Source: a virus
Taxonomy: Duplodnaviria; Caudoviricetes
Length of the DNA stretch: 27,908 nucleotides
Virus record (IMG/VR): IMGVR_UViG_3300011335_000080
Span: 1-27,908 of that record
Strand: one strand, 5' to 3'
A program made the position numbers and the translations under genes. Below are positions 1 to 27,908 of the stretch, in pieces. Each line of letters starts with the position of its first letter. The first letter of the stretch is position 1. The notes under the pieces were generated by a model. The model did no database searches, was not told where the DNA came from, and saw only the letters and a list, made by a program, of their open reading frames with translations.

Positions 1-332
1 GTCCAGTCAATCTGATTGAACGCATCGAGTTTGCCATACTTAGCATTCTTCATCTGGCCTAAGCCGTAATGAGATCCATTACGTGCATCAACTCTCCAGT
101 TGCTTTCCTTTGTGATGAGTTGATCTAGGCAAGTGAACTGCTCCATTGATACCAGCCGAGAGTGTGCGTATAGTTTGAGTAAATCAGTCTGCGATACTGC
201 TTTGGCTTCGATTGTTGTGGATATTGTTAAGATCAGAATTGACATAGGAAGAGCCAATAAGTTTTTATTATTTTTAATCTTTATATTTATTTTCTTTTTA
301 TTTATCTTTATTTTCAAGATATTATCTTTCAA
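1..332 (-). CDS. Secreted lytic transglycosylase (SLT/lysozyme-like), 3' truncated; start uncertain
   Basis: Manual translation ..LLALPMSILILTISTTIEAKA..CLDQLITKESNWRVDARNGSHYGLGQM..QIDW; homologous to 14340-14750; absent from ORF track. Confidence 0.75.
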   Translation of the reverse strand, partial: MKDNILKIKINKKKINIKIKNNKNLLALPMSILILTISTTIEAKAVSQTDLLKLYAHSRLVSMEQFTCLDQLITKESNWRVDARNGSHYGLGQMKNAKYGKLDAFNQIDW

Positions 333-408
333 GTATAGCGATGCACACTGACATTCTGTCAAGCATTGAGTGCGGTGTGTCTCATTGTCCACAGGCTTCT
401 GTGGATAA
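262..408. other. Putative replication origin, unit A
   Basis: TTGTCCACA 385-393 and inverted TGTGGATAA 400-408 beside an AT-rich tract at 262-330. Confidence 0.6.
332..381 (-). promoter_or_regulatory. Promoter GACAC-N9-AAT-N2-TTGACA-N19-TATACT
   Basis: Same elements and spacing at 14750-14799; TGACA-N3-TGTCA palindrome overlaps the -35. Confidence 0.55.
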
Positions 409-1023
409 CTATTTGATTGCATTGAGTATCTCCCTGCTTAATTCAATCGGAACCATTGAGCGTTGCTTAGAGCCTTTAATGCCTTGTGTGCCTGTCTTAG
501 ATCCTCTTGGAGCCGCTTCGTGGCACTTGTCCCCATTCTTGCAGTGTGGCCTGGCAGTCCAGCCATCAACCGCGCCCCAGAGGTCAGTCGGTTTCATACG
601 CGTTTCTCCATAAGTGCAATATGTGACTGTGCGTCTATCCATGAAATCCATCATCGATTGCTTTCTAAGCATTCCACGCGGATTCTCTATAATGAAGCCT
701 TTTGTTGGCTTTAGTTCACGAATGAGAGAGATTGTGTGCTCAATTATCTTTAAGCCGGCAATTGCTTTCTCATTCTTTGGCTCCCCATTAGGAGTCCAGT
801 ATGTGCTGCATGAGGCCACGCTGAAAGTTGTGCAAGGCGGCGAAGCCCACACGAAGTCCGGTTGGCCGTACTTAGTCACAAGATATTCGGCGCTGATGGA
901 CAAGATGTCTCTCTCATCGGCTGCAAATTGCTCATCAAGTTCAATCTTGACCACTGTGTGACCTGCATCGTGGAAAGCCCGTGTCGCTGATCCTGTACCA
1001 GCGAAGAAATCAAATATCAGCAA
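409..1023 (-). CDS. Compact orphan C5-cytosine DNA methyltransferase (TTG start inferred)
   Basis: Motif I DFFAGTGS, motif IV ASPPCTTFS, motif VI IIENP. Confidence 0.85.
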   Translation of the reverse strand: MLIFDFFAGTGSATRAFHDAGHTVVKIELDEQFAADERDILSISAEYLVTKYGQPDFVWASPPCTTFSVASCSTYWTPNGEPKNEKAIAGLKIIEHTISLIRELKPTKGFIIENPRGMLRKQSMMDFMDRRTVTYCTYGETRMKPTDLWGAVDGWTARPHCKNGDKCHEAAPRGSKTGTQGIKGSKQRSMVPIELSREILNAIK

Positions 1024-1195
1024 GGCCAGCCACCAGAGAATCATCGACCAATTTGACCGAGAATGCCCCACACCCAGAGCATTGAGCGAACCATTCGTGC
1101 TCAGTCAATTCGGCTCCTTTAGTGATGAGGTGTTCTCGACGCCCGTCGCCGTAGAGTTTCTTGCAAATTGAACAATCAAATCGCAGCAGTGGCAT
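1010..1195 (-). CDS. Small zinc-ribbon protein
   Basis: CSIC..CSGC; nearly identical to 14839-15018. Confidence 0.75.
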   Translation of the reverse strand: MPLLRFDCSICKKLYGDGRREHLITKGAELTEHEWFAQCSGCGAFSVKLVDDSLVAGLADI

Positions 1196-1670
1196 ATTCG
1201 CTCCTGGCTAGATTCTCAATTGGATTGAGATTGCCTTGATCTATCCACCAGGAATCCTGACGTGGATTCTTAAACCTCTTACGCTTAGCGAATGCCACTG
1301 GAAGCCAGCCGACGATGTAGTAAGTCGGAGACTTGCCCACGACTAGCACTGCCACATCATCATCTCGATCGTATGGATACACGATGAGATTGCCACCAGT
1401 GTATGACGTCCAACGAACCTCGATGCCCTGGCCTACATCTGCCCGTCTCTTGCCCTTGTTGTCGCTGATGTCGTAGTCAAGCCCGAAGTATCGTGCGACT
1501 AGTAATTCAGCAGCAAGAGATTCGGCATATTCAACACATCGTTCATGATTGTTAAGTTTTGAGTTGTATTGAATGCCGTGACCTAGTGAGCCAGATTGTG
1601 CAAATACGACATCACTGGCGCGTCGATGGATAGCCCATTCATCGGCCTCGCTGATTGTCATTTTCTGCAT
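1176..1670 (-). CDS. Hypothetical protein, possible PD-(D/E)xK nuclease-like fold
   Basis: E..ADVGQGIEVRWT pattern; conserved with 14999-15493; start MQKMT chosen by homology. Confidence 0.5.
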   Translation of the reverse strand: MQKMTISEADEWAIHRRASDVVFAQSGSLGHGIQYNSKLNNHERCVEYAESLAAELLVARYFGLDYDISDNKGKRRADVGQGIEVRWTSYTGGNLIVYPYDRDDDVAVLVVGKSPTYYIVGWLPVAFAKRKRFKNPRQDSWWIDQGNLNPIENLARSEYATAAI

Positions 1671-1852
1671 TGAGTGCAGAACCAAAGAACCGGCTCTCCT
1701 CCGACTGCACGCAAATAACCTGCACGATCTAGCATCTGAATACTGTTACAGTGATCGCAATTCTCGACTTTGTATTCGGCGACGATTTTGCCATCGACAA
1801 GAGTCCGACCAATCATCGTGTCCACATCAATCATTTCAGTCACGCGGCTCAT
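1658..1852 (-). CDS. Small zinc-ribbon protein
   Basis: CDHC..WFCTQC; homologue at 15481-15675. Confidence 0.7.
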   Translation of the reverse strand: MSRVTEMIDVDTMIGRTLVDGKIVAEYKVENCDHCNSIQMLDRAGYLRAVGGEPVLWFCTQCRK

Positions 1853-1932
1853 TTTGTAGCCATCACAATCAGAGCAAGAATGAGAATGCACTCGATAATC
1901 ACAAGAATTTTGATTAGACGATTCTTCATCAT
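1849..1932 (-). CDS. 27-aa single-pass membrane micro-protein
   Basis: MMKNRLIKILVIIECILILALIVMATK; ATGA overlaps with both neighbours. Confidence 0.65.
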   Translation of the reverse strand: MMKNRLIKILVIIECILILALIVMATK

Positions 1933-2594
1933 ACTTGTGGCCTCCACTGTCCATCAGATCCGAGCATGTACCAGGCCGGCGGACACTGCTTCGCCTTGAC
2001 CTTTTCAACGCACATATAACCGCCCCAGCCCTTGCCAGTCTTGGCTGATGTGCCTTCTTTCCAAATCATGTGACCATGAGCGCACATCGGAGCAGCAGCA
2101 ACTTGAACGCCGCCTAGAGTTTCTTTGATCGTGTCAATGGCAGTTCCCAGAGTTGGAATTCCGGCTTCTTCTGCCTCTTCGCGTGTCTTAAACGATGGGA
2201 CATCTCCATGCTTTGTGTTCCAGTAGTCATAGGCGACGGCTGAATCTTGAACAATCTTTGGATCGATTCGCTCTACTTGCTGCATATTCTGAACTGTTGG
2301 TCGTTTATCAGATCCAAGCACCAGGCCGACACATCTGCCAATTGCGCTTGTGACTGTATCCTCGACGAACCATTTTTTCATCTGGACGTTGTAGGTATTT
2401 ACGTTGCCGAATGCGTAATCAATGCCGGCTGGCTCTTGATCTTCGTAATGACGATAAACACGGCATTCAACTAGGACGTAGCCCTTTTCCAAGTTGATGT
2501 CCATGATTGAGGTGTGAATCTTGCCGTCTTTGTGGGTAGCCCAGAATCGCTGAATGCGTGCGGCAACATCTTCGTAATTTTCCAAGAAACTCAT
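1929..2594 (-). CDS. Putative Rad52/Sak-like ssDNA annealing protein with C-terminal zinc finger
   Basis: YEDVAARI..VEDTVTSAIGRC pattern; C-terminal CAHGHM..YMC..QC. Confidence 0.55.
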   Translation of the reverse strand: MSFLENYEDVAARIQRFWATHKDGKIHTSIMDINLEKGYVLVECRVYRHYEDQEPAGIDYAFGNVNTYNVQMKKWFVEDTVTSAIGRCVGLVLGSDKRPTVQNMQQVERIDPKIVQDSAVAYDYWNTKHGDVPSFKTREEAEEAGIPTLGTAIDTIKETLGGVQVAAAPMCAHGHMIWKEGTSAKTGKGWGGYMCVEKVKAKQCPPAWYMLGSDGQWRPQV

Positions 2595-2752
2595 TTAGCA
2601 ACCGCCTTAGATGAAATATGGCGAGTCACTGCTCGGCCTCGTTGATAGCCTTCTTTGTGACCTTCTTTGTAACCTACCGAATAACTGACAATCGCCCAGA
2701 AAATACAGGCGATAGCCATAAGGACAAATAGTCCGATTTCACTTGTTGTCAT
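2591..2752 (-). CDS. Small membrane protein, first gene of the putative early operon
   Basis: TM segment then GYKEGHKEGYQRG; GGGAGC SD before MTTSEIG; conserved in unit B. Confidence 0.75.
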   Translation of the reverse strand: MTTSEIGLFVLMAIACIFWAIVSYSVGYKEGHKEGYQRGRAVTRHISSKAVAK

Positions 2753-2755
2753 TTT

Positions 2756-2837
2756 GCTCCCGTGGGAGCCTTGTCGTTGCTCCCAAATAAAGAATGACAT
2801 CAACAACCGACATTGGCAAGATTCGCCTCGGCGTGTC
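2756..2837 (-). promoter_or_regulatory. Promoter GACAC-N9-AAT-N1-TTGCCA-N17-CATTCT with structured 5' leader
   Basis: Same layout at 16492-16574; leader GGGAGC..GCTCCC-AC-GGGAGC. Confidence 0.55.
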
Positions 2838-3034
2838 TATTTCTTAAGAGCAATTTCCAGCATCATTTGATCTAAGCGCTGCTCAATTCGATTGACTTGA
2901 TCCTTGAGACTGTTCCCACCATTCGGTTGAAACTCTCGCATGATCGACTTCACCATGAATCTCATTGACGAATAGATGGCAGTGAGCACCGCAAGGACAA
3001 GCCCACCCACCGCCGTCCATTCGCCGACACTCAC
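2837..3034 (-). CDS. Lysis-cassette membrane protein
   Basis: N-terminal TM, NGGNSLKDQVNRIE motif; follows the holin. Confidence 0.7.
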   Translation of the reverse strand: MSVGEWTAVGGLVLAVLTAIYSSMRFMVKSIMREFQPNGGNSLKDQVNRIEQRLDQMMLEIALKK

Positions 3035-3213
3035 TTCGTCTTACCGAATTGCGCGTCGTTAGGATTTAACCAGCGAAGAATCACTGGCAGAATTGAAGCG
3101 ATACCTGCCCCGGCAATCGCTTTCGGATCTGTCACACCGGCAAGATATACGGCGATGCAACTACTGAGGAAACTTCGTCCCCACGAAGCGCCCATAGCCT
3201 TGAGATCTTTCAT
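3031..3213 (-). CDS. Putative holin
   Basis: 60 aa, two hydrophobic segments, RWLNPND C-terminus, directly after endolysin. Confidence 0.7.
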   Translation of the reverse strand: MKDLKAMGASWGRSFLSSCIAVYLAGVTDPKAIAGAGIASILPVILRWLNPNDAQFGKTK

Positions 3214-3734
3214 TTCTTTTTCTCCTTTGGCTTTGCCTTTTGGATTGGCTCAACCAGTGGATATTCTCCATCATAAGCAACCAGGCGAGCGCGAGCGAAA
3301 CCCACAATCTCCTTGCCGATATAGCGCTGCTTAAGCATCACCATTCCGCCGTTGCGTTGATCTCCGTTTCCGGAGGTATTGCCTTCGATAGTTAGGACGC
3401 TCGACGCACCAACCTTGACGACAATTCCGATGTGACTGATGCGATCAATGCCATCATGTGGAAAGTCCATAAAGCAAAGATCTCCCAATTGTGGCTTTTC
3501 TTCAATCCAGCGACCAAGTTCTTTCATCTTGTGAGCACCGGCAGCCGTTGAAACCATTGATGGAATCTTGACTTTTGCCGCATCGAATACCCAATTGCAG
3601 AACGAACCGCACCAGGGCAGTCCGTCGGCCTTTGTGAATTTGCCGTACTTTGTCAGATTATCGCCAGTCTCAACTGTGCCAATTTCTGCTAGTGCGACTT
3701 CAATAATCCGAGCAGCAGTGCCTTCTGGATACAT
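3210..3734 (-). CDS. CHAP-domain endolysin
   Basis: PWCGSF, SHIGIV, IEGNTS motifs. Confidence 0.88.
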   Translation of the reverse strand: MYPEGTAARIIEVALAEIGTVETGDNLTKYGKFTKADGLPWCGSFCNWVFDAAKVKIPSMVSTAAGAHKMKELGRWIEEKPQLGDLCFMDFPHDGIDRISHIGIVVKVGASSVLTIEGNTSGNGDQRNGGMVMLKQRYIGKEIVGFARARLVAYDGEYPLVEPIQKAKPKEKKK

Positions 3735-3988
3735 TAAAGTCCAAGAGCCTTCAGATCATCAGCAGTTAAACCAAGCGCAGCCAATTTGGCTTGTGCAGTT
3801 GCTTTGTCTGTCTCTGCTTTTGCATCTTGTTGCGCTTTCCAAGCATCATATTGAGCAACGCCAGCCGTGAATTGTGCCTTAGTAATTGGCTTACATTCCA
3901 GGAATTGGATACCTTCGTAATCATCTCCAGAAATATACCAACCACCTTCTGGCAATAAATAATTAAGAACTTCATAACCTTTCGCCAT
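3734..3988 (-). CDS. Tail-fibre-associated small protein
   Basis: TAATG-coupled to fibre gene; C-terminal AKLAALGLTADDLKALGL. Confidence 0.65.
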   Translation of the reverse strand: MAKGYEVLNYLLPEGGWYISGDDYEGIQFLECKPITKAQFTAGVAQYDAWKAQQDAKAETDKATAQAKLAALGLTADDLKALGL

Positions 3989-4824
3989 TATGCACCTATT
4001 TCCATGAGAATGATTGTGGACAATTCGCTTGCTTCTTGGCATGAAATTAAAGAGGCTGCCACTCTGTTCTTAAATTGTGTTTTGTACGTTGTTGCTGATG
4101 TTGTTGCTGGTGAATCTAGATAATTGATGTTAAAGGTGAAATCGCCATTTCTGATTGCTGTATCTGTTGCCATTCCTTCATTGGATATTTGAGCAATTGA
4201 TGATCCGCCGCGTTGTAATTGTAAAAGCAGAGCATTCCCAGAATTTCCGTTTGTGCGATTTGTACCGCAATTAGAAACCAGAACTAGAACTTTTGATGTT
4301 GCAGAACTTGGCGTGATTGTTGCAGTTAAATTAGTGTCCGCGTAAGTAGTCGTGCTATTAGTTGCTCGCGTTGTTGTTGTTCCCATGACTACTTGTAAGA
4401 CTTTTCCGCCTCCTGCTGGAGCAGCCCATACCGGCGCACCTCCTGAAACTGTCAAGACTTGTCCAGTTGAGCCAATACCTAGACGATCAAAAGTGCCTGA
4501 ACCTGTGCCTTTAATCAAATCGCCGGCCGTTGTGATTGTCGTTGCCATTGAATTAGTGATGGTCACTGCTCCAGAAGTGCCACCGCCTGAGATTCCAGTG
4601 CCAGCAGTGACGGCAGTGATGTCACCGACGTCATTAGTGATCCAAGTAAAAGCCATATCGGTCGCGCTTGTCTTAGACAAGATTTGACCAGTTGTGCCGC
4701 CTTTAAGTTGAGCCATTGATGTATCGACGGCCTGGCCGAATGTGTTGAAATCAGCCGGAAGATTCGTGACGAGACTTGTACTCGTCGGCATCACCCAGCC
4801 GAAGTTTGTTGTTGGATTTGCCAT
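3988..4824 (-). CDS. Tail fibre / receptor-binding protein
   Basis: G/T-rich repeats (GDLIKG..RLGIGSTGQVLTV..W); last tail gene. Confidence 0.75.
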   Translation of the reverse strand: MANPTTNFGWVMPTSTSLVTNLPADFNTFGQAVDTSMAQLKGGTTGQILSKTSATDMAFTWITNDVGDITAVTAGTGISGGGTSGAVTITNSMATTITTAGDLIKGTGSGTFDRLGIGSTGQVLTVSGGAPVWAAPAGGGKVLQVVMGTTTTRATNSTTTYADTNLTATITPSSATSKVLVLVSNCGTNRTNGNSGNALLLQLQRGGSSIAQISNEGMATDTAIRNGDFTFNINYLDSPATTSATTYKTQFKNRVAASLISCQEASELSTIILMEIGA

Positions 4825-4833
4825 TGTTTCTCC

Positions 4834-6075
4834 TTAGTTCACGACTAGCGCGTCCGCGTAGTCAAGGGTAGGGCTAAGCGTGTTGAAAGTTTCTGCGACA
4901 CTCACATCTTGCCACTCCATCGCCTGGAGTGAGAATGCTAATGGCGAAACAAGAAGAGTCACTGCGAGTTCGTTATAGGAAGCCTGGAATCGCCAGCCCT
5001 CGACAAAGCCCAAGAAGTTTCCGGATTGCATATTGACGGGCAAGTCCGAAAGCGAAATTGGCTGACCCATGAACACATTGATAAGAGCGTCACGATCTAA
5101 GTCATCAAGTTCTGGATTAGTCAATGCGAAAGTGATTGATTCTAAGAATCCTTGAGGTTGGGCTCGCAGCGTCAAATAGAAGTCGGCTTGATCTTGGGCA
5201 TCAACGGCGTGATTGAGCGAGGTCGTGATTTGCTGAGCGAGTTTTCCATAGAGTGCAATCGAATCCGCATTAGTGGCCGTCTCTGTTCCAGATTTCCATA
5301 CGATGGAGACATCGTTGCGAATATCTCCGGCCTTAGTCTGAATCTTAATTCCACGCGCTAAAGCCTGATTAGCCGTGAGTTCTGTGTATCCGTTAATGGC
5401 AAGGTAAGTCGAACGATGTGTGGAATCGGCATAAGAAATCTGACCTTGAGCATTTTCGTAAATATAACCAAGTCCAGAAGTTGCAAGGTCAGCCACAAGA
5501 TTCCAGACGACTGTCTGATTCGCTCCACGATTTGCAAGTTCGTAATTGCCTGGACGATCTATCTCACCGAGCCCTGTATTTTCTGCATCAGCCCACGTCT
5601 GCGTCGCTGGCGTATAAGTCGCCCACGTAAGAGCGGCTGGTACTTCGCCCCAGTTATTTACCAGTAAATCCTGGAGAATTGTGTAAATCTGGTCACCATC
5701 GAAATCAACCGAAAGCACGCCTTCAGTTAATGCCTTCTGAAGCCTTGCTAGGGCTCCTAGAGCCGTGATTGTTATCTCTTGAGTGATTGCCACTGAACCG
5801 GCTTGCGAGACAACCACTGAGACGTCCACGACGGAACCGCCAAAGATTGGAACGAAAGTGCCAGAAGTGTCCTTAACCTCGATTGTGACGGAGTCATTGA
5901 TTTCGGTTGTGATGGCTGCAAGATTGAGATTGATGAGATTGATTGTGCAATAACCGGCTTGAGCCTGTGTGTAGATATTTGTGCGTCCTGACGAAATTGA
6001 AAGATTAGCAAGAATGACGTCGGTGTACTCAACCGCGTTGATTAACACGCGCCAGATTGGAGCCCACTGTGTCAT
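4834..6075 (-). CDS. Minor tail / baseplate hub protein
   Basis: 413 aa directly after tape measure; homologue 18592-19839. Confidence 0.7.
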   Translation of the reverse strand: MTQWAPIWRVLINAVEYTDVILANLSISSGRTNIYTQAQAGYCTINLINLNLAAITTEINDSVTIEVKDTSGTFVPIFGGSVVDVSVVVSQAGSVAITQEITITALGALARLQKALTEGVLSVDFDGDQIYTILQDLLVNNWGEVPAALTWATYTPATQTWADAENTGLGEIDRPGNYELANRGANQTVVWNLVADLATSGLGYIYENAQGQISYADSTHRSTYLAINGYTELTANQALARGIKIQTKAGDIRNDVSIVWKSGTETATNADSIALYGKLAQQITTSLNHAVDAQDQADFYLTLRAQPQGFLESITFALTNPELDDLDRDALINVFMGQPISLSDLPVNMQSGNFLGFVEGWRFQASYNELAVTLLVSPLAFSLQAMEWQDVSVAETFNTLSPTLDYADALVVN

Positions 6076-7466
6076 TAGATAGCCTGAAGTGCGCCGGCTC
6101 CGCCAGTGCCTCGAAAGAATGAATCATTAAGAGTGTTGATGATTGTCCGAGCCGTACCTTCAGAATCAATGGCTCCATTAACTGTGAGGTTGATTGTGGG
6201 AGACGCAGCCGATTGAGCACTTATACGAGCCGCATTCTGTGAATCTGTAAATCCACCTCCGGCGACGCTAGCGATTGCCGCACCTGAAACCGCAGAAGAT
6301 ACTCCGCCCGTGGAAGTTGTAGATCCTGTTCCGGTTGAAGTGGTAACTGTTGGAACGGAAATTGTTGGCACTGTTAATGATGGCGTTGCAGTCTTTGGAA
6401 TAGTTACGTTCGGAACGCTAATTGATGGAGCCGAAATTTGTGAAACGTTAGGCAAGAATGGAATTGAGTTGTAAACACGAATGAGAGCGTTAATGCCTGA
6501 TACTGCTCCAGAAATCAATGAGTTCAATCCACCAATAACCGCTCCGATGACGTTGATGATTCCGCCAGCAATTTCTCCAACAACCTTGAAGGCTCCGCCT
6601 AAGACTGTGACTAAAACCGGCACAACGTATTTCTGAATAAATCCGATAAATTCTGTGAAGGCTTCTTTGTTGTTATCAATTGCGTCAGTGATTGGCTTGA
6701 AGAAGTCTGCGAACTGACCAAGAGCCGGAACGACCTTGCTCACGATAAAATCAACAAGTTGCTGAATAATTGGAAGCAATTTATATCCGATAGTTTCTTT
6801 TGCTTCATCGAATGTGACTTTCAAGCGATCTAAACGGCCTTGATATGTCTCTGCATTTGCGGCGGCAGCGCCACCAAATAAATCTGTTAGTTTCTTCTGG
6901 ACGTCAGTGAATGACATTGTTTTAAGTTCAGCAGAAGATAATCCGATGCCTAACTTTCCAAGAGCGGCAGTATTGCCATCGTATGCCTTACCGATTGCGT
7001 TCGCCACTGCCTCGAGCGGCTTGCCTGTTGATGTAGAGACATCAAGCGCAACGGAAAGAAGATCCTGCGCCTTGCTTAAATCTCCAGTCGAGAGCGCGAT
7101 GCGCTGCAAGGCCGGACGAAGTTTGTCATCGCTGACGCCGGTTGCCAAAGACATCTTAAGAATCTGATCTTCTGTGGCTTTAATTTGTGCTTCAGTTGCT
7201 CCTGTTGCAGATTTTAGAGCGTTAGCAAGTTTTACCTGTGCCGCTTCATCTTCAATCGCCGCCTTGACGCCATCGACTCCGATTTTGATTGCATAAGCAG
7301 CAGCAGCAGCGCCAGCAGCCGCGAAGGCCATGCCGGCTTTCTTGCTAAATTCACCCATCTTGGAAGAAGAGTCATCAACGTCTCCATTGGCTTGAGCCAG
7401 CGATTTCTTGAGTTGATCTACATCAGCCAGAATCGAGAGTTTAAGTGTGCGCGATTGTCCGGCCAT
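6075..7466 (-). CDS. Tape measure protein (short)
   Basis: Ala/Gly-rich helical sequence with aromatic periodicity; position in tail module. Confidence 0.85.
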   Translation of the reverse strand: MAGQSRTLKLSILADVDQLKKSLAQANGDVDDSSSKMGEFSKKAGMAFAAAGAAAAAYAIKIGVDGVKAAIEDEAAQVKLANALKSATGATEAQIKATEDQILKMSLATGVSDDKLRPALQRIALSTGDLSKAQDLLSVALDVSTSTGKPLEAVANAIGKAYDGNTAALGKLGIGLSSAELKTMSFTDVQKKLTDLFGGAAAANAETYQGRLDRLKVTFDEAKETIGYKLLPIIQQLVDFIVSKVVPALGQFADFFKPITDAIDNNKEAFTEFIGFIQKYVVPVLVTVLGGAFKVVGEIAGGIINVIGAVIGGLNSLISGAVSGINALIRVYNSIPFLPNVSQISAPSISVPNVTIPKTATPSLTVPTISVPTVTTSTGTGSTTSTGGVSSAVSGAAIASVAGGGFTDSQNAARISAQSAASPTINLTVNGAIDSEGTARTIINTLNDSFFRGTGGAGALQAI

Positions 7467-7919
7467 TTACCACTCCTTCAAGATTCGGTCGAAAGCATTT
7501 TCCCACTTGTCAATGATTTCTGGCTGGATTGCGCGGAGTGTCGGATAAATAAACCAGCCAGTTGAGCCGCGCCCTGTTGAGCCCGACCAGATTGGGAATT
7601 GCTTAAACTTGTTAGATCCGAATTCTGTACCGCCCCAGAGATCCTTTGTTGTTGCTCCGCCAGAGAACTTTTGACTTACAAAGCCGAAAGAGAGTTCACC
7701 AATCTTGGAAGATTTAGAAACACGAGAGCCACTGGCAATTCTGTCGGCTGCTTTGCCCCTGGTGACTGCCTTTTGCTGAATTTTGCCTTGTGCAAATTCT
7801 GCCAGCGCTGATGATTCTCTTTTAGCCGCATCTGTGGCTTCTGAATCCATCGCCTTAAATGCTGAAGTAATGCGACGAAGGTCAGCCTTATCGTAAGCAA
7901 TTTCAACCTTGTCGCTCAT
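7467..7919 (-). CDS. HK97 gp10-like neck/tail completion protein
   Basis: TEFGS..WFIYPTL pattern; start MSDKVE by homology with unit B. Confidence 0.5.
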   Translation of the reverse strand: MSDKVEIAYDKADLRRITSAFKAMDSEATDAAKRESSALAEFAQGKIQQKAVTRGKAADRIASGSRVSKSSKIGELSFGFVSQKFSGGATTKDLWGGTEFGSNKFKQFPIWSGSTGRGSTGWFIYPTLRAIQPEIIDKWENAFDRILKEW

Positions 7920-8297
7920 TCTGTTTCTCCAGTATCTCAAAGGCCGTATAGATTTGCTCCGCCGTCGTCCATTCGCTCATCGGAATTCCTGTGGCTATCG
8001 CTAACTCCACAAGTATTCGATTTACGCTTCCGGCGGCGTAACTTTTGGGAGAACGTCACCGACTGTCACGTCGGCCACTGTTTCACACCAGATTTCATAA
8101 CCTTTAATTGGCTTACCACCGGCTTCACGTTTCATCGCATTCCACGCAAGGAAGAGAAGATCAGATATTCCAATCTTCTCCTGCGCTTGCGAGATTGTGC
8201 TGCCTGTCTTTTGTTCCCATTTAGCCCACTCTGGCGGTTGTGCGGTGTATGTGCCGAACTCGCCATTTGTGTATTCGATGGTGATTGGTAGTCTCAT
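7903..8297 (-). CDS. Tail assembly chaperone (8022-8297) with -1 frameshift extension to 7903
   Basis: Slippery C CCA AAA at 8049-8043; -1 frame SYAAGSVNRILVELAIATGIPMSEWTTAEQIYTAFEILEKQNERQG*. Confidence 0.8.
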
Positions 8298-8319
8298 TAT
8301 TTGCTCCCGTTTCTATTGA

Positions 8320-8721: not shown

Positions 8722-8730
8722 GATTGCTCC

Positions 8731-9752: not shown

Positions 9753-9775
9753 TTCATCGTCCCTTCGTATTCGGC

Positions 9776-9805
9776 TGGGCTAGATACGGGAGCGCACCTA
9801 GCCCA
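9776..9805 (-). terminator. Post-capsid stem-loop (terminator or mRNA stabiliser)
   Basis: UGGGCUAGGUGCG-CUCC-CGUAUCUAGCCCA; identical at 23563-23592; no U tract. Confidence 0.6.
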
Positions 9806-9817
9806 TGATCAGTTTGT

Positions 9818-12519: not shown

Positions 12520-12532
12520 GTGGCGAAGTCTA
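12520..12532 (-). promoter_or_regulatory. Possible -10 element for a leaderless portal transcript
   Basis: TAGACT-N7-ATG in both units (also 26289-26301). Confidence 0.45.
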
Positions 12533-16486: not shown

Positions 16487-16491
16487 TTTTT

Positions 16492-18576: not shown

Positions 18577-18591
18577 AAGTATTTCCTTTCG

Positions 18592-19839: not shown

Positions 19840-21251
19840 TAGATTCCCTGAAGTGCGCCGGCTCCGGCCGTGCCTCGGAAGAATGAATCATTAAGGACGT
19901 TCACGATTGTGCGAGCAGTACCTTCGGCATCTATTGCCCCATTTACCGTGACGTTAATTCGCTCGCCCGTTGAAAGGCCACCAGTAGCCGCTAATCGTGC
20001 AGCAGCATCAGATTCGCGCTTGTTTCTCAATCGTTCTGTTTCTGCCTTTAATTCTTCACGTCTGATAATTGCAGCTTGCATTGAAGCTGAATAAACGCCG
20101 ATGTCTGCGCCGGTAGCTGGCGAAATGATGCCGGTGACTTGACCTGTTCCTTTTCCAGTATCAAATCCGCCATTACCAGATGGATCTACATTAAAATCAG
20201 AACCACCAGCTTTTAGACCTTTTGAATTATCTCCACCGCCAAAGAATCGAGTGATTGGATTGTCTTTCATAAGTTTAATAAATGCCTGAACCGCATTTAT
20301 TACTTTTCCAATTCCAGAAAGAAGATTGGCAAATCCATTTACCAAGCCAGCAATGATTGCAGCTATAACCTTTAATGCGCCGCCTAAGCCTGTCACAAGA
20401 ACTGGCACAACGTATTTTTGAATAAATGAAATCAAGTCTGCAAATGTTTCTTTATTATCTTCTACCGCTTTGGTGATTGGCTTGAAAAAATCAGCAAATT
20501 TACCAAGTGCCGGCACAACCTCATTCACGACAAATTCGACAAGTTGCTGAATAATTGGCAAAAGTCTTGCACCGACTGATTCTTTGGCTTCATCAAATGT
20601 TACTTTGAGAATCTCTAGGCGTCCGGCAAATGTCTCTGCATTAGCTGCTGCCGCTCCACCAAATAGATCCGTAAGCTTTGACTGCACATCTGTGAAAGAC
20701 ATCGCTTTGAGCTCTGCCGTAGATAATCCGATGCCTAACTTGCCAAGAGCTGCCGTGTTGCCGTCGTATGCCTTACCGAGTGCATTAGCTACCGAATCTA
20801 AGCCTTTGCCCGTCGCTTGAGAAATGTCCAGTGCAAGATTGAGAAGATCTTGAGCCTTTGTGACGTCGTTTGTAGAAAGAGCAAGTCGTTGCAATGCTGG
20901 ACGAAGTTTATCGTCTGCAACACCTGTGGCCAAAGATGTCTTGAGAATCTGTTCTTCAACCGATGCAATCATTTGATTCGTTGCACCAGTTGCATTCTTT
21001 AATGCAGTGGCTAGACGTATTTGTGCAGCTTCATCTTCAATCGCGGCTTTGACTCCATCGACTGCAAGCTTGACGGCGTAGGCTCCAGCAGCAGCTCCGG
21101 CGGCTGCAAATGCAAGCCCAGCCTTCTTGCTAAATTCTCCCATCTTTGATGATGAGTTATCGACGTCTCCATTGGCTGCTGCTAATGATTTTTTTAATTG
21201 ATCTACATCAGCAAGAATCGAGAGCTTGAGTGTGCGCGATTGTCCGGCCAT
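19839..21251 (-). CDS. Tape measure protein (short)
   Basis: Homologue of 6075-7466. Confidence 0.85.
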   Translation of the reverse strand: MAGQSRTLKLSILADVDQLKKSLAAANGDVDNSSSKMGEFSKKAGLAFAAAGAAAGAYAVKLAVDGVKAAIEDEAAQIRLATALKNATGATNQMIASVEEQILKTSLATGVADDKLRPALQRLALSTNDVTKAQDLLNLALDISQATGKGLDSVANALGKAYDGNTAALGKLGIGLSTAELKAMSFTDVQSKLTDLFGGAAAANAETFAGRLEILKVTFDEAKESVGARLLPIIQQLVEFVVNEVVPALGKFADFFKPITKAVEDNKETFADLISFIQKYVVPVLVTGLGGALKVIAAIIAGLVNGFANLLSGIGKVINAVQAFIKLMKDNPITRFFGGGDNSKGLKAGGSDFNVDPSGNGGFDTGKGTGQVTGIISPATGADIGVYSASMQAAIIRREELKAETERLRNKRESDAAARLAATGGLSTGERINVTVNGAIDAEGTARTIVNVLNDSFFRGTAGAGALQGI

Positions 21252-21707
21252 TTACCACTCCTTCAAGATTCGGTCAAAAGCATTTTCCCACTTCGCGATG
21301 ATGTCTGGCTGGATTTCGCGTAGTGTCGGATAAATAAACCAGCCCTTAGATCCGCCACGAAGTCCACTGCCTGACCAGACTGGGAATTGCTTAAACTTGT
21401 TAGATCCGAATTCTGTACCGCCCCAGAGATCCTTTGTCGTGCCACCGCCAGAAAACTTTTGACTTACAAAGCCGAAAGAGAGTTCGCCAATCTTGGAAGA
21501 TTTAGAAACACGGGAGCCACTGGCAATCCTGTCGGCTGCCTTACCTCTGGAGATAGCCTTTTGCTGGATTTTGCCTTGAGCAAATTCGGCCAAAGCTGAG
21601 GATTCTCTTTTAGCTGCATCAGTAGCTTCAACGTCCATCGCCTTAAATGCCGACGTAATACGACGAAGATCAGCCTTGTCATAGGCAATCTCAACGTTGT
21701 CGCTCAT
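21252..21707 (-). CDS. HK97 gp10-like neck/tail completion protein
   Basis: Homologue of 7467-7919. Confidence 0.5.
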   Translation of the reverse strand: MSDNVEIAYDKADLRRITSAFKAMDVEATDAAKRESSALAEFAQGKIQQKAISRGKAADRIASGSRVSKSSKIGELSFGFVSQKFSGGGTTKDLWGGTEFGSNKFKQFPVWSGSGLRGGSKGWFIYPTLREIQPDIIAKWENAFDRILKEW

Positions 21708-22085
21708 TTTGTCGCTCCAATATCTCCAAAGCCGTCAGAATTTGCTCCGCCGTCGTCCATTCGCTCATCGGAATTTTTGTGGCTATTGCAAGCTCCACAA
21801 TTATTCGATTGAGGCTTCCGACGGCGTAACTTTTGGGCTTGCGTCACCTGCACCAATATCGGCCACTGTTTCGCACCAAATTTCATAGCCTTTGACTGGC
21901 TTGCCACCGGCTTCGCGTTTGTGAGCATGATAAGCAAGAAAGAGAAGATCGGAGATTCCAATCTTTTCTTCAGCTTGCTGAATTGTATATCCTGACTTCT
22001 GCTCCCATTTTTGCCATTCCGGTGGAGCCGCCGTATAAGTGGCGACTTCACCGGACTGATATGTGACTTCGATGTTCAGTTTCAT
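21691..22085 (-). CDS. Tail assembly chaperone (21801-22085) with -1 frameshift extension to 21691
   Basis: C CCA AAA at 21837-21831; -1 frame SYAVGSLNRIIVELAIATKIPMSEWTTAEQILTALEILERQNERQR*. Confidence 0.8.
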
Positions 22086-22109
22086 TTTGTGCTCCCGTTT
22101 CTAGTTAGT

Positions 22110-22511
22110 TTAACTGATTGTGATAACTGGTGTCGTTGCGCAAAGCATTGACCAAGAATCTGTCTGAGCATCTGGTGCAGTGCCGCCAGCAGTTGGTGCT
22201 ACTGGGAAAGCAGTGCCAGCAAATGACGCGCCTGTTGCAGTGAGCAGAGTGAAAGCCAGTGCAGTATTTGGAGCAGAAGTGAACGCAGTCCACATCGCTT
22301 CAAAGAGTGATCCGGTTGCGCCCCAGTCTGCAAGAAGCTCGATATTAAGTGTCCATTGATCATCAATGTGCTTATAGGCTTTTCCATCAAGTGTCTGATA
22401 AGTAGTGATGACTGGAGCATTAACTAAAGTGACCGCAGTTGTCTGCGCGTCGTAATTCACGGTGGCAAGAGTGAAAACTATGTCGCGACCGGTGACTATT
22501 GTTGTTGGCAT
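22110..22511 (-). CDS. Major tail protein
   Basis: Homologue of 8320-8721. Confidence 0.75.
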   Translation of the reverse strand: MPTTIVTGRDIVFTLATVNYDAQTTAVTLVNAPVITTYQTLDGKAYKHIDDQWTLNIELLADWGATGSLFEAMWTAFTSAPNTALAFTLLTATGASFAGTAFPVAPTAGGTAPDAQTDSWSMLCATTPVITIS

Positions 22512-22523
22512 TTCTTTGTCTCC

Positions 22524-22922
22524 TTAGATTGTCTGTTGTGTGTAGTAAGTGCTGACCGCGAGATCCGCCACTAGTAGATTCGATGCGCCCACCGATTGGA
22601 TTGTCGGACGTTGAACGTCTCCGACTGTGTAACCTGTTGGCATCGCTGCGATGATGCTAATAATAAGCTGCTCAAGATTGTCCAGTGCTCCGGCCGTGTT
22701 GTTGTAAGCAACGGCCGCAGTGACCACGAAATTGATTTTCACGCGTACCTGCGATTTGCCGATTGTTGTCGTTTCTAAATAGGGCGAATCGGGAACGATT
22801 ACGCAAGCTGGAGGAATGACTGCCTCTGGAGGCGATGAATAAACTGATGCAACGACGCCAGAGAGAGCAGTCGCAAGAGTGCCTCTGACGTTAGTCGCGA
22901 TTGATGTTGGTGTAGGCATCAC
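22524..22922 (-). CDS. Putative tail terminator
   Basis: Near-identical to 8731-9129. Confidence 0.55.
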   Translation of the reverse strand: MMPTPTSIATNVRGTLATALSGVVASVYSSPPEAVIPPACVIVPDSPYLETTTIGKSQVRVKINFVVTAAVAYNNTAGALDNLEQLIISIIAAMPTGYTVGDVQRPTIQSVGASNLLVADLAVSTYYTQQTI

Positions 22923-23539
22923 ATAGCCATTGTTGAAACGTCGATGTAATTACCTATGAGCCCAATGATTCGATTTTGGAGTGAGCGCCCCATACGAAAT
23001 GGCGAAGGCTGAAAATCTACTCCTTCAATCTGACCGCCTGGTGCGACCACGCTCTGGAAAATCTCAACGCTGACGATAGTGACCGCCTGTTCGACTGCGT
23101 CGGTATTTGCGTAGAGCGTGGCCGCGTCTGCCCCAGATAGATAAACAACGCCGCCAGGAATTACCGGACGAAATGTTATGTCATCGTTAGTGAGCGCGCA
23201 TGTGAAATAGAAATAAGGAGCCGGATAAGCGAAAGGTAAGTAAGGAAATGGATCATAGTAATTCGATGTGACTGTCTTTGTTCCGTTAAATGTAGATGGA
23301 ACGCAACCTGTAATCACAACACTTTGACCAGCGACGAATGTATTTGGCTTTTGAGTGATGTAATAGGCGACATTGTTTTGAAGATAAACGGCGGCGACTG
23401 AATTTTGATTAGCAGTCAATAGCGGCAGAATTACTTGCTCAGCTGAATCGATAATTCCTTCAAGATAAGCATCAGAATAAAGAGAAACAGAGACGCCAAG
23501 AACCTGTCTAAGACTGGCGACTGTAATGATTGCTGGCAT
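22919..23539 (-). CDS. Head-tail adaptor with central beta-rich insertion
   Basis: Homologue of 9126-9752. Confidence 0.6.
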   Translation of the reverse strand: MPAIITVASLRQVLGVSVSLYSDAYLEGIIDSAEQVILPLLTANQNSVAAVYLQNNVAYYITQKPNTFVAGQSVVITGCVPSTFNGTKTVTSNYYDPFPYLPFAYPAPYFYFTCALTNDDITFRPVIPGGVVYLSGADAATLYANTDAVEQAVTIVSVEIFQSVVAPGGQIEGVDFQPSPFRMGRSLQNRIIGLIGNYIDVSTMAM

Positions 23540-23562
23540 CTCTGTTCCCTTTCGTGAGCTGC

Positions 23563-23592
23563 TGGGCTAGATACGGGAGCGCACCTAGCCCA
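23563..23592 (-). terminator. Post-capsid stem-loop
   Basis: Identical to 9776-9805. Confidence 0.6.
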
Positions 23593-23604
23593 TGATTAAG
23601 TGGA

Positions 23605-25170
23605 TTAAGTTAAATTGAAGCGACGTAGACCACCCGCAAAGACGGCCTGAGCTGCAATATATCCATATAGTGAAATTTCGATTTCTCCGGTAGTTGGCAC
23701 ATTTGTGGCCAAAGTTAAAGCTGGAGATTCGAAGATTTCGATTGAACGTGGCTCGATGATGAATGCTGACTCATCGATGCTTGTGCTCACCATGTTGGCG
23801 TCTGTGTAGTAATCGAGTCCAAGTACGTTTCCGCGAATCGCAGTTGGATTTACTGTTCCGCCTGGATTCATTTGCATTGGCTGAGCATTGTAAATTGGAC
23901 GTCCAGTTGTATCTGTCGCAGAAAGTAAAGTGCTCCAGATTGAAGTACCAGAAACGAATGCAGTAGCTGTGCGCTTTGTTGCATTGTAGACGGCTGGTGA
24001 TTCTGTTGATACGAATGAAATAATGCCGGCTGAGTCAGCAGCAGTTGCAGTCGCTTGAGTTCCGCCGGCAGTAATCTGAGCGATTACATATTGATCAGTT
24101 GCCTGAGCATACGCATCGCGAAGATTTGCCAACATGATTTCATAGAAACTTGGATCTGATCTGTCAAGAAGCTCGACACTGTAGCGCTGAAATCCCATTT
24201 TCTTAATTACGGTAGCGTTCACATAGGCTGAGGTAATCGCGGTTGTTCCAGTTGGATCTCCGCCTTCTGCCACTGTTGCAGCAGTCGAATTTGCAGTGAT
24301 TTTAGGAATCGAAACTGTCATTCCGTAGCTATTAAGCGGACGTGTTCCACCGCAAGCTTCAATGACTGGACGAACTGCGTTTGTGTTTGTTGCTACATCG
24401 CGAACGTATGACACTGGTGAGAACGCTGGATTTGTTGTGAATGAATCGTCAGCAGCTTTTACATATTGACGAGAATCTTCGTTGCCAAGTCCTGCTTTGA
24501 TTGTGTGCTCAAGGTATGCGCCACCAGTTGTAATTGGTGATCGTGGTGATGTGAAATAAAGCGGACGAGCTGCCTCGGCCTGTACGACTTTGGAAGCCTC
24601 AACCGTTTCGGCTGGTGCTTCTGTAACGGTTGGAGTTGTTTCCACTTCGTTTTCTCCTTTGGTAGTTTGTTCTTCTGTTTCCACGACGGATTCAGAATCT
24701 TCTAGCTCACTAGCTGCGACCGCAACCTTTGCGCTTTTTATGGCTGGCTCTGTGACTAGTGAGACTTCTTTGAGCGCACTTGCGCTAATAACTAGAACGC
24801 CATCGACGTTCTTATACTTTTCAGCCAGAACGCCAACACTAAAGCCGTCGCGTAATCCAGAAAATGCCTCTTCCAAAGCATCAGATCCGGAAGTTGTTTT
24901 GGCAACAGAAAAAGTTGCGTAAATGCCTTCTTCATCTTCCTCGTAATCTTTTAAGAATCCGATTGGAGATTCACGGCGATGCTCAAGTAATAATTTCGTA
25001 GTATCGCTAAAAGTAATTGAGCCAGGCTTGAACATAGTTGATCCGGCTGATGTGGAGCCTTCTTCATTCCATGTGACGATGCGGCCAGAGATTTCGCGTC
25101 TTGGAAAGTCTGTCGCCGTGACCTTCATTGAAAAGTCAAGATTCATCGGAGTTGGCTTGATTTCTTTCAT
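23605..25170 (-). CDS. Prohead protease-major capsid fusion (HK97 type)
   Basis: Homologue of 9818-11401. Confidence 0.88.
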   Translation of the reverse strand: MKEIKPTPMNLDFSMKVTATDFPRREISGRIVTWNEEGSTSAGSTMFKPGSITFSDTTKLLLEHRRESPIGFLKDYEEDEEGIYATFSVAKTTSGSDALEEAFSGLRDGFSVGVLAEKYKNVDGVLVISASALKEVSLVTEPAIKSAKVAVAASELEDSESVVETEEQTTKGENEVETTPTVTEAPAETVEASKVVQAEAARPLYFTSPRSPITTGGAYLEHTIKAGLGNEDSRQYVKAADDSFTTNPAFSPVSYVRDVATNTNAVRPVIEACGGTRPLNSYGMTVSIPKITANSTAATVAEGGDPTGTTAITSAYVNATVIKKMGFQRYSVELLDRSDPSFYEIMLANLRDAYAQATDQYVIAQITAGGTQATATAADSAGIISFVSTESPAVYNATKRTATAFVSGTSIWSTLLSATDTTGRPIYNAQPMQMNPGGTVNPTAIRGNVLGLDYYTDANMVSTSIDESAFIIEPRSIEIFESPALTLATNVPTTGEIEISLYGYIAAQAVFAGGLRRFNLT

Positions 25171-26288
25171 CGGATCATTTCCTCTTCTAGTCGGATTTCA
25201 TCGGAAGTTAAAGCTCCGATGTCGTAGAGAATCTTGTACACATCTGCGCGCTCTTTTGCTGATCCGCGCAAGTAATCGTCTAAATCGAATTTAACTTCTT
25301 GTGATGCTGGAACGAAATCATTTGCCATTCCAGTCATTGAAAGACGCTCTTCAATGGCACACATAATCGGACGAAGTGAGAAGTCCAGCAAAGATTGACG
25401 CGCAAGTGTTGCGTTTGTGTACGTCATACTAGATCCGGATTCTGCATCGACGTAATAGGCCGGAATGCCGGTAACTCTGGCGAGCTCGGTCGAAACGTAC
25501 GATCTGGCTTGATTGAGCTGCAATTTCTCTGGATCGAATCCTAAAGTCTGCAATTCCACGTCAGCATTCAAGAATGCAGTTGAACGATTGCGACGTGACT
25601 GCCCCCAAGATTCGAGAAGCTTTGCGATGCGATCTGCTGGAAGTGCAGTGCCATTAGATTTCAAGACCATCGTTGGAACTGGCTCGCGTGCGTACATTGT
25701 CGCAGCGCGTTCTAATTCTGCACCAGCTTTGATTGTGCGACCGGCACGATTGAGAATGCCCTCATCTACGCCGTAAAAGACTGCAAGACTTCCAACGCCT
25801 TCGTATGGCACTGGAATTGAATCTACGCAGTAATACTCAATCTCTGTTCCTCTGTCATTAGTTTTAATTGTGACGCGAGTAGGATCAATGCGTTCTGCAC
25901 TGCGAATGCGATATGTGTCGGCGTAGATTTCCAAGATACGCATGTAGCCGTATCCGTATAGCAATAAATCTTCTGCAAGCCAGGCATAGGTTGCGAATCC
26001 AGGAACGCGTGGATCTGGCTGATTGATAACCTTTGGAGGAGATTCAACGCGAGCGCCATCTGCGCGAGTGCGAACCTTAAGCGGAATTGATGCAACGCTT
26101 GACGAAATTATGTTGCGTGCTCTGGCGCATGTTGGCACTGACATAAATTCAACGCGAGAGGCAGTGATTCCGGCAACGCCGTAGATATTATAAAGCGAGC
26201 TAGTGACATTTACTGGAGCAAGAGAAGCTTCAATGTCAGAAGTGGCAGCCGGAGCTGCGGTCGTTACTGTGCGCGAGAATAGACCCAT
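25167..26288 (-). CDS. Portal protein
   Basis: Homologue of 11398-12519. Confidence 0.9.
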   Translation of the reverse strand: MGLFSRTVTTAAPAATSDIEASLAPVNVTSSLYNIYGVAGITASRVEFMSVPTCARARNIISSSVASIPLKVRTRADGARVESPPKVINQPDPRVPGFATYAWLAEDLLLYGYGYMRILEIYADTYRIRSAERIDPTRVTIKTNDRGTEIEYYCVDSIPVPYEGVGSLAVFYGVDEGILNRAGRTIKAGAELERAATMYAREPVPTMVLKSNGTALPADRIAKLLESWGQSRRNRSTAFLNADVELQTLGFDPEKLQLNQARSYVSTELARVTGIPAYYVDAESGSSMTYTNATLARQSLLDFSLRPIMCAIEERLSMTGMANDFVPASQEVKFDLDDYLRGSAKERADVYKILYDIGALTSDEIRLEEEMIR

Positions 26289-26317
26289 GTGGATAAGTCT
26301 AAAGGCTTGCTATACAT

Positions 26318-27817
26318 CTAACCAACCATGATGTCCATCTCCATCTCTGGGCGTGTCGCAAAGTGTGTTGCAAGTGCCGAAGCCACTGCCGCGCACACTG
26401 CAACCGAAGAGGCGCGCCGGCCGATGATCCAACCGCCATCGCCCATTGGTAATCTCACGGCCGATAATATCTGCTTGGATAATTCTGCCTGTTTTCCGTG
26501 AATCAATCTCTTTGAGGTAATCGCACCGAGCAATTCATCGCAGCTCTGGCCGTAAAGTGCGCCATCGATGTCGATTACAGGAATTCCGGCTGGTGCAAGT
26601 CGCGCAGCTACGGCAGAGCTTGTTCTTTTGCTGAAAGCCACATATTCAAGCGGATACTTGCGTGCATAGGGCGCGATGTCGTTGGCGATAGCTTTATCGT
26701 CTAGCGAAATCGGATTGTGCCAGGTATGTAGAAGCTTGATGTTGAAAGTATCGTCCGCATTTTTCTGAGCGGCCACAAGCGCCCCATCTCTACGATCTGG
26801 CGATAAATCAAGTCCGAACCACGTCATTTTCTCAACGTCGAGATGAATCTCATTAGATCCACACTCTTCCCATTCCTTCACAGGAATCGCTCCGGAGATT
26901 GTATTGACCCACCGGCACAACACCTCCGTCTGGACGACATCTGGAGGATCATTGAGAACGGCGCGGATATTATCTTCGTGGATTGTGTGACCAAGCGCCG
27001 GATTGCTCGCGACCCAATTCTTTTCATCTTCAATCTTGTCCGAGAATGCTGACCATTCGAAATAAGCAATGTCATCGTTTCCACCAGCAGCCGATGCCAT
27101 ACCGCGCTCGCGTAGCTGATTCAAAATTAAACTATGTTGATCTCCGGCGTTTGAAAATGTCCAAAGCTGCGGATTCTTAGCGGCCATCATCGTATAGCGC
27201 ATCGCTGACCAGGCTTCGGTGTCTTTGAGCTGACGTGTCTCGTCCATGTACACAGTCTCCGGCTTAGCAAATCCACGAGCTGCTGCATTAGCTGCTTTGA
27301 CCACGTAGCGAGCGCCGGACATTAGCTCAATCTCTTCGGATCCGTGAGCCCAGCGAATCTTCTTTACTTGCTTTGCCAGTGATTCGTTGCTCTCGATAAT
27401 ACTGACCACGTGCCGGAAAGTCTCCAGCGATGTAGTCAGTACGTGAGCCGAACCTAATTGCAAAGATTCTTGCCAAAGGAAAAGGCGAGCCAAGATTGAC
27501 ATCTCCATAATTGTGGACTTGCCATTCTGTCGAGCTGCAACGACCACGACCAAAGGCGCGTGCCAGCGTCCGTCCGGCTTAATTTTCAAAGCGTGTTCGA
27601 ACACGAATTTTTGCCAGGGCATTAAATCGACGTTCAGAGAAGCTGCAAAGTCGATGATTTCTAAGCCCTTAGACGGTAAATCGTTGAGCCTAGAGTGGAT
27701 TCTGGGCGTTCCTGAGCCGATTAGACGCTCTGGTGTAGGAGAGATTCCCTGTTTGTCCCTGTTCGCCTCTGAGACGACCTTGAGCGCCCTTGTAGAGCCC
27801 TGTCCAGCCTTAGTCAT
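26318..27817 (-). CDS. terL: Terminase large subunit
   Basis: ARQNGKS, VYMDE, GLDLSPDR. Confidence 0.93.
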   Translation of the reverse strand: MTKAGQGSTRALKVVSEANRDKQGISPTPERLIGSGTPRIHSRLNDLPSKGLEIIDFAASLNVDLMPWQKFVFEHALKIKPDGRWHAPLVVVVAARQNGKSTIMEMSILARLFLWQESLQLGSAHVLTTSLETFRHVVSIIESNESLAKQVKKIRWAHGSEEIELMSGARYVVKAANAAARGFAKPETVYMDETRQLKDTEAWSAMRYTMMAAKNPQLWTFSNAGDQHSLILNQLRERGMASAAGGNDDIAYFEWSAFSDKIEDEKNWVASNPALGHTIHEDNIRAVLNDPPDVVQTEVLCRWVNTISGAIPVKEWEECGSNEIHLDVEKMTWFGLDLSPDRRDGALVAAQKNADDTFNIKLLHTWHNPISLDDKAIANDIAPYARKYPLEYVAFSKRTSSAVAARLAPAGIPVIDIDGALYGQSCDELLGAITSKRLIHGKQAELSKQILSAVRLPMGDGGWIIGRRASSVAVCAAVASALATHFATRPEMEMDIMVG

Positions 27818-27876
27818 GACTTGTGCTCTCTTGTGTCGGTGAAAACGGAAAAGGAAGAGTCAGAGGTGTCCTTGCT
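27805..27876. repeat. Second copy of the 72-bp block
   Basis: Exact match to 14036-14107. Confidence 0.6.
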
Positions 27877-27908
27877 TGTCCATAAAACACGCCTGTTCTG
27901 TTGCACTT
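27810..27908 (-). CDS. 3' end of another HNH endonuclease allele (5' truncated)
   Basis: KCNRTGVFYGQARTPLTLPFPFSPTQESTSHD*, in frame with the 14041-14340 C-terminus. Confidence 0.75.
   Translation of the reverse strand, partial: KCNRTGVFYGQARTPLTLPFPFSPTQESTSHD

Follow-up and report, generated by a model that had tools for sequence, protein, structure and literature searches.

The virus record IMGVR_UViG_3300011335_000080 (Duplodnaviria; Caudoviricetes) reads as two different small phage genomes, here called A and B, following one another head to tail, which raises the question of whether such a double genome exists in nature or was made during sequencing or assembly. The stretch of DNA analysed (the window) is the whole IMG/VR entry of 27,908 nt, which is classed there as linear and 100% complete. 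The 28-kb heterodimer most likely does not exist as a biological entity, and the value of the record lies in the cohesive-end (cos) site that A and B share with their whole family, in an HNH endonuclease gene that this site cuts, and in a blind spot that it exposes in concatemer filters. The features on which the argument turns are the following:

1..14084, minus strand: unit A, a mini siphovirus-type genome with its terminase (left) end at 14084, where the relative G002 starts at the matching base
14085..14096, minus strand: the A/B boundary, a likely 12-nt cos sequence, CTCTGACTCTTC, with a predicted 3' overhang, placed by mapping left and right ends in relatives
14097..27853, minus strand: unit B, a complete 13,757-bp genome between both of its ends, matched by the relative G001, which stops exactly at 14097
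27854..27865, minus strand: second copy of cos (repeat of the 12-mer)
14036..14107, no strand assigned: 72-bp exact repeat, copy 1 (49 nt of left end, cos and 11 nt of right end), the longest exact A/B run
27805..27876, no strand assigned: 72-bp exact repeat, copy 2, found by exact-run search
27866..27908, minus strand: a 43-nt tip, which is a right end but not that of B (12/43 mismatches to the B right end)

The record is contiguous and contains no N. Comparison of the record with itself by BLAST gave seven collinear pieces in the same orientation, with 69-84% identity and offsets running from 14415 down to about 13785, which bears out the two collinear units described in the initial annotation; when compared as whole units, A and B were 77.7% identical over 85%. 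All recognised genes of both units lie on the minus strand and in identical order, namely terminase, portal, fused protease-capsid, head-tail and tail genes, tape measure, fibre, CHAP lysin, small genes, a transglycosylase-like gene and HNH. Protein identity in the 21 gene pairs compared (one of which was disregarded as mis-framed) ranged from 38% for the tail fibre up to 98%. About 56% of the A/B differences in aligned genes fell at third codon positions and a methyltransferase-like gene was present in A only, in agreement with the divergence at synonymous sites and in whole modules that had been claimed. The reported matches of the record ends also held, with position 3 corresponding to 14418 and 27904 to 14135, as did the estimate that the record is about 280 bp short of a closed dimer: about 320 nt of the right end of A are absent before base 1 (322 nt in G002 and 319 nt in the locus L011 lie beyond window base 1), and 43 are supplied by the tip. 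The record was phage sequence throughout, with no host DNA, and searches of it for tyrosine and serine recombinases (PF00589 and PF00239) gave 0 matches (controls 14/14 and 12/14), consistent with the stated absence of an integrase.

The description of the junction did not stand. It had been placed near 14416 and described as seamless, but the actual boundary is 14085-14096, and the junction is a genome-end site within a 72-bp exact direct repeat flanking B. Because the two ends of the record resemble the inner copy at only about 77-80%, both a boundary near 14416 and a break caused by collapse of a 280-bp repeat were rejected. It had also been missed that each end of the record cuts a gene (the transglycosylase-like gene at base 1 and HNH at 27908).

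The genome ends were mapped in relatives that had been gathered by protein (terminase N-terminus; HNH protein) and not by the cos motif. On the left, the first base of 32 of the 80 terminase loci corresponds to 14084 and 27853 and lies 36 nt upstream of the ATG. On the right, 10 of the 79 non-window HNH loci have their last base precisely at the equivalent of 14097, and 16 of the best 30 metagenome loci end there too, some of these being the same contigs as the HNH loci. The exact 12-mer was found in 66/79 HNH loci, three of which end with it, and 3/79 stop inside it; in loci that reach across cos it was exact in 66/66, among genomes 68-92% identical. Four whole linear monomers (G002, G023, G024 and G025) run from the left base to the right base without the 12-mer, and the locus L021 consists of the G024 right end, the 12-mer and the G024 left end, a clean self-join. 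The bases just inside the ends differ among records, and ends produced by graph breaks at a repeat would therefore not all fall on one base. As judged from these end positions, 14085-14096 is likely a 12-nt 3'-overhang cos site, repeated at 27854-27865, and the three records ending right after the 12-mer fit an overhang that sometimes survives. The earlier guess that the units share cos ends was borne out. The 72-bp repeat was also considered as an att site, given its att-like geometry; this was dismissed, since the repeat marks the genome ends and the searches for a recombinase gave nothing.

The accessible text of PMC5557969 describes how end repair strips 3' overhangs, after which assemblers put the cos ends at contig limits. 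The 3'-overhang cos phages treated in that text (HK97 type) resemble the present family in having fixed ends at contig limits, differing terminal sequences and occasional crossing reads, and the 12-nt gap seen here, lost in end repair, is below the 20-nt limit set there. The traits of a 3' cos that are present comprise a fixed left end, a fixed right end, a short gap that is restored in L021, and a terminase, an HK97-type portal and capsid and an HNH gene by the end site. Unlike in that text, the ends here come from many metagenome contigs and not from the read starts of one isolate. Unlike the HK97-type cases, the site lies within an HNH frame, and two different phages are joined across it. 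The genes on either side of the site are:

14041..14340, minus strand: HNH endonuclease gene (PF01844, phrog_589)
12549..14048, minus strand: terminase large subunit of A (phrog_9, E 2e-67; PF03354)
26318..27817, minus strand: terminase large subunit of B, 95% identical to that of A in amino acids

The HNH frame passes through cos at codons 82-86, with its final 18 codons falling on the left end, where they overlap the terminase start. The frame was open across cos in all 17 crossings tested, which is not a test of selection. On this reading of the sequence the DNA in virions would carry a cut HNH gene, and the full protein would be made only after the ends join. Only 36 nt (14049-14084 and 27818-27853) separate the left end from the ATG of the large terminase, which is base 37 of the left end, and family scans of the proteins recognised no small-terminase gene in either unit. 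The cos-split HNH gene bears on how packaging starts in a 14-kb genome that has no recognisable small terminase.

A similar arrangement is found in Rhodococcus phage RRH1 (NC_016651) and, in the portions of PMC5513430 that were available, in Arthrobacter cluster AN: terminase at the left, HNH at the right, a portal and a fused protease-capsid gene, in genomes of the same 14-17 kb class. There were 66 capsid-protease matches; all 25 that are listed were to phages of 14-17 kb, and 63/66 carry actinobacterial genus names (Curtobacterium counted). Against the RRH1 and cluster AN capsid protein, however, only the protease part aligns, at 29-44% over roughly one quarter of the protein length, and the region 11000-18900 had no blastn match among 50,697 phage records. 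The terminase matched mostly Gordonia, Arthrobacter, Mycobacterium and Microbacterium phages, at less than 30% identity. RRH1 also has terS first, whereas the window units have no small-terminase gene ahead of the large one, and the RRH1 HNH gene stops 86 nt short of the genome end, while the HNH gene here crosses it. No whiB was found in the window. The units are not filed with RRH1 and cluster AN because they differ from them in DNA similarity and in the small terminase. Freshwater 'miniphages' of less than 15 kb (PMC6802176) are alike in size (13.5-15 kb) and habitat, and are set beside the present units by description only, with the missing whiB counted as a difference; the accessible text of that paper gives no end structure for them and does not contain the words 'cohesive' or 'concatemer'.

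A and B are two independent phages. A stand-alone genome, G001 (13,839 bp), is the same as 14097-27865 with 2 differences (26385 and 26324), and there was no exchange with A anywhere along B, as no A tract interrupts this match. The nearest relative of A is the monomer G002 (14.5 kb), with 94.5% identity over 94% and both ends at cos; it was the best match in the search for a stand-alone copy of A, and no exact one was found. Thirteen further monomers are closer to A than B is, and the A-B identity lies within the family spread (median 74%, range 68-92%, 300 pairs). A and B paired in 0/200 bootstrap trees for terminase and in 0/200 for portal, and they stood apart in a quick capsid tree. An origin by duplication and divergence is ruled out by these identity ranks and three trees.

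To place the window among its relatives, 25 near-complete records, chosen from the loci in hand, were fetched whole. They measure 13.7-15.4 kb per unit. Twelve are self-closed by end overlaps, four are linear from cos to cos, one keeps the overhang, three break elsewhere and five cross cos into a second end. Clearly foreign ends at cos were carried by 4/25 (G001, G004, G014 and G017). The crossing end of G001 has 7/70 mismatches to its own right end, and the corresponding figures are 6/141 for G014 and 11/28 for G017; the crossing in G015 is near-self (1/64). In G004 (G004:C1 15367-15378, locus L200) a 15,366-bp monomer and the 12-mer are followed by 3,263 nt of another phage (85.7%), making it the second over-length record, and in G017 the own left end and the foreign start are the same as in G004. 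Overall, 73 of 75 records crossing cos were shorter than 15 kb, the two longer ones being the window and G004. The A-B pair itself was seen in 1/75 cos-crossing records, and among 79 crossings near-identical arms were shared by no more than 4 pairs on the right and 7 on the left. The loci L084 and L091 have identical 300-nt left arms and right arms that are 80% alike across cos; this may be a foreign join or natural mosaicism and was not counted.

The layout of the window is thus A left end, cos, B right end, then the body of B, and B left end, cos, another right end. The B left end has two different foreign right ends, one in G001 and another in the window. The latter, the 43-nt tip, has 3 mismatches to a common allele and is the sole one of 67 alleles without a T6-GG run; the three private differences suggest that it derives from a single error-bearing read. 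G003 was the only other fetched record with the exact first 100 nt of A; it is self-closed by a 98-nt overlap and has the common tip-like allele beside that end. Together with G024, another carrier of a tip-like allele, it groups with A in the terminase and portal trees. The right end in the tip is therefore likely to be A's own or that of a relative, and the window is likely a swapped figure of eight, in which the B right end is joined to the A left end and the A right end to the B left end. The 72-bp run is the first of 71 exact A/B runs of at least 20 nt (the next being 58 and 57). A and B shared three nodes at k 55, only the 72-bp run at k 59, 63, 71 and 72, and none at 73 or 77.

Depth was read from public runs holding the sequence, at least 20 in 6 studies with several duplicates, from river and estuary; the values are word depths per contig and not copy numbers, and the runs may not be the source sample. 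Among the matches listed, exact pieces of A and B had depths of 20.6 versus 294-328 (run X1), 6.3 versus 15-17 (X3), and 2.8 and 13.2 versus 24-29 (X6), a 2- to 15-fold gap, and run X10 had no exact A piece. An A-left piece listed in X1 had a depth of 107.5 because related strains share that piece. These depths argue against an obligate 1:1 pair of A and B, and no more. In X1 the shared stretch 14036-14095 formed a separate contig of depth 323.6, distinct from A-left at 107.5 and B-right at 215.2, and in X3 and X10 the B right end continues past the 12-mer as far as 14051, ending before the first base that separates A from B. No contig bridging 14035 to 14108 was among those listed in X1, X3, X4 and X10, where the contigs are too fragmented to decide.

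The double genome is very probably an artefact of one kind or the other, made by the assembler or in the tube, and these are the two among the explanations offered by the initial annotation (an assembly chimera and cohesive-end joining during library preparation) that the evidence favours. By a slight balance of probability, it arose as an assembler walk through the shared cos node, passing once round B by way of the 72 shared bases. Where reads cross cos, because the DNA was circular, concatemeric or self-annealed, A and B would merge into one node at k up to 72, and B would then be a loop that leaves and re-enters this node. The contig path would run from the tip (A right end) to the node, round B, to the node again and into the body of A, a figure of eight written as a line. 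Assemblers would be expected to write such loops out by one traversal, and with k-mers shorter than 74 nt the path is indistinguishable from two separate circles. Such a walk needs no special molecule and explains the reciprocal swap at two crossings. Several observations weigh against it. In 7/12 of the self-closed relatives the end overlaps are 127 nt, which suggests a large k for many such records; at such a k a 72-nt repeat would be resolved only by real reads, favouring the tube or the cell. At k 55 there would be two further shared nodes (7593 and 8727), and no switch occurs there. In neither of 2 records was the B left end followed by the right end of B, and the other crossings of the allele that partners it in G001 share just 19 or 6 nt with the B left end, too little for a graph join unless a phage not seen here forms a bridge. 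The tip allele is common to G003, G005, G024 and L011, so it need not be that of A. Finally, the A-left piece in X1 is at 107.5 and not 20.6, in depths taken from runs that are possibly not the source.

Annealing in the tube, to which we give a real but clearly lesser chance, would have virion DNAs that share the 12-nt overhang pairing at random after extraction and being sealed in library making, with the assembler following the hybrids. The exact 12-mer in 66/66 crossing loci among genomes 68-92% identical speaks for this, as do the changing partners (foreign ends in 4/25 records, and two foreign partners for the B left end in two records) and a tip that looks like a single read. It also accounts for G001, in which the B right end is a dead end and the left partner shares too little sequence, and it would be preferred if the assembly ended on a large k. 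From the ring-closure formula and the Kuhn length of DNA, a rough sum puts cross-joining equal to self-closure at about 8 micrograms/mL of 14-kb DNA, and for broken molecules intermolecular joining is the sole option. Yet two hybrid events would be needed in one record, the second partner has the very allele expected of A, 12/25 records self-close and L021 is a clean self-join, and each foreign join could also stem from a shared graph node. A join inside the cell is unlikely. Here A and B would co-infect and the host ligase would seal their identical ends into a transient mixed circle or concatemer, from which the terminase, cutting each cos, would package both parents unchanged. The family-wide identity of the 12-mer, the recurrence of foreign joins, an HNH frame that is kept at both junctions and a reciprocal geometry like that of a circular dimer lacking about 280 bp all speak for such a molecule, but it requires a near-simultaneous double infection and a shared host for phages whose tail fibres are only 38% identical, the A/B depths differ in all three runs that list exact pieces of both, and the A-B pair occurs in 1/75 cos-crossing records. 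We likewise consider it doubtful that co-infecting members of this freshwater mini-phage family are ligated in the cell into mixed circles or concatemers through their one sticky end, rebuilding hybrid HNH genes and sharing packaging, with the record as a snapshot of this. Cutting at cos returns the parents, so it would not shuffle alleles by itself, and B carries no A tract. An annealing protein as the joining agent was rejected, as there is no exchange tract to explain and the label is unconfirmed. Far less probable again is a stable 28-kb unit or tandem array (by duplication and divergence, as a cointegrate or as a prophage array). A record that is contiguous without N and a 72-bp direct repeat around B resembling attL/attR geometry would suit it, but A and B are not sisters (0/200 bootstrap trees each for terminase and portal, with 13 monomers nearer to A), B occurs alone, no recombinase was found, the repeat is the genome-end site, and the 25 near-complete relatives have only 13.7-15.4 kb per unit. 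Nor is there a host flank, the sole match in prokaryote genomes being a 4,952-bp contig that starts from the left end. The initial annotation had seen in a mixed concatemer or an array an unusual way to keep and shuffle alternative alleles; a lasting arrangement of this kind is contradicted by a separate monomer relative for each unit, by A and B never being sisters, and by the lack of exchange, the changing partners and the unequal depths. Among the results that it had named as speaking against a real dimer, the existence of monomers and a difference in depth between A and B were both observed.

Concatemer artefacts, as dealt with in the available text of CheckV (PMC8116208) and MetaVR (PMC12807716), resemble the window in being contigs of about twice the expected genome length and probable products of assembly. 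Concatemers of a single genome are caught by k-mer frequency, with a cut of >1.4 in the MetaVR text (PMC12807716), and repeats can yield chimeric phage contigs according to the part of PMC10104058 available. Unlike the CheckV and MetaVR concatemers, the present record joins two genomes that are 78% alike. Its mean 21-mer frequency is 1.024 (cut 1.4), at a length of 27.9 kb against a family size of 13.7-15.4 kb; it passes the k-mer filter because two different genomes are joined. Mixed joins of cos phages therefore slip past such filters and are listed as complete genomes, and they can inflate genome sizes and fake recombinants. By pooling contig ends across datasets, on the other hand, it was possible to place the two genome ends of an uncultured family with single-base precision and with no use of reads. 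If hybrids inside cells were true, they would give a direct handle on the rate at which related wild phages co-infect. In the literature covered, which included PMC9878933 and outside which most subscription journals fall, nothing was found on the ends of the window family or on mixed joins at cos.

Some further observations concern the distribution of the family. The metagenome scan covered 25/64 parts, and within these no exact B right end was found. Among the 79 other loci, none held a relative of the A tail fibre with more than 80% over the C-terminal part. The sole match in 185,579 prokaryote genomes, L377 (JAPLON010000135.1, 1-4952), is a short phage contig that begins at the left end; it is binned in a metagenome-assembled genome titled Proteobacteria and gives no host evidence.

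The remaining genes recognised in the two units were:

11398..12519, minus strand: portal of A (PF04860, TIGR01537); B copy 25167-26288, 81% identical in amino acids
9818..11401, minus strand: fused prohead protease-major capsid protein of A (PF04586 with PF05065/PF25209, TIGR01554); B copy 23605-25170, 82%
6075..7466, minus strand: tape measure of A (phrog_991); B copy 19839-21251, 66%
3988..4824, minus strand: tail fibre-like gene of A (phrog_6942); B copy 17692-18576, 38%
3210..3734, minus strand: CHAP endolysin of A (PF05257); B copy 16947-17477, 84%
1929..2594, minus strand: conserved protein with a predicted alpha-beta-beta-beta-alpha N-domain and a Cys/His C-domain; B copy 15672-16337, 67%
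409..1071, minus strand: cytosine methyltransferase-like gene, in A only (PF00145, phrog_757), with no counterpart in B

The scan of the window proteins recognised no family of DNA polymerases, helicases, primases or repressors. The protein encoded by 1929-2594 may be an annealing protein; its structural model, with the alpha-beta-beta-beta-alpha N-domain, has a pLDDT of 66. The Atlas features point strongly to a fold like that of a dsRNA-binding domain, and no match to annealing families was found in PDB or Pfam, so the label 'annealing protein' was not confirmed. Its C-domain, which is PF25690-like, has invariant Cys/His residues.

The methyltransferase-like gene of A is also present in G002, and the block 501-1000 is without a match in G001, G003, G004 and G005, marking an accessory slot. 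In the 5' part of the transglycosylase-like open reading frame, an A/T-rich stretch of low complexity (252-343 and 14670-14761) is nearly identical between A and B, with exact runs of 33 and 51 nt, although the body of the gene is only 66% identical in amino acids. This stretch probably acts as a promoter or origin, and the transglycosylase-like gene probably begins downstream of it.

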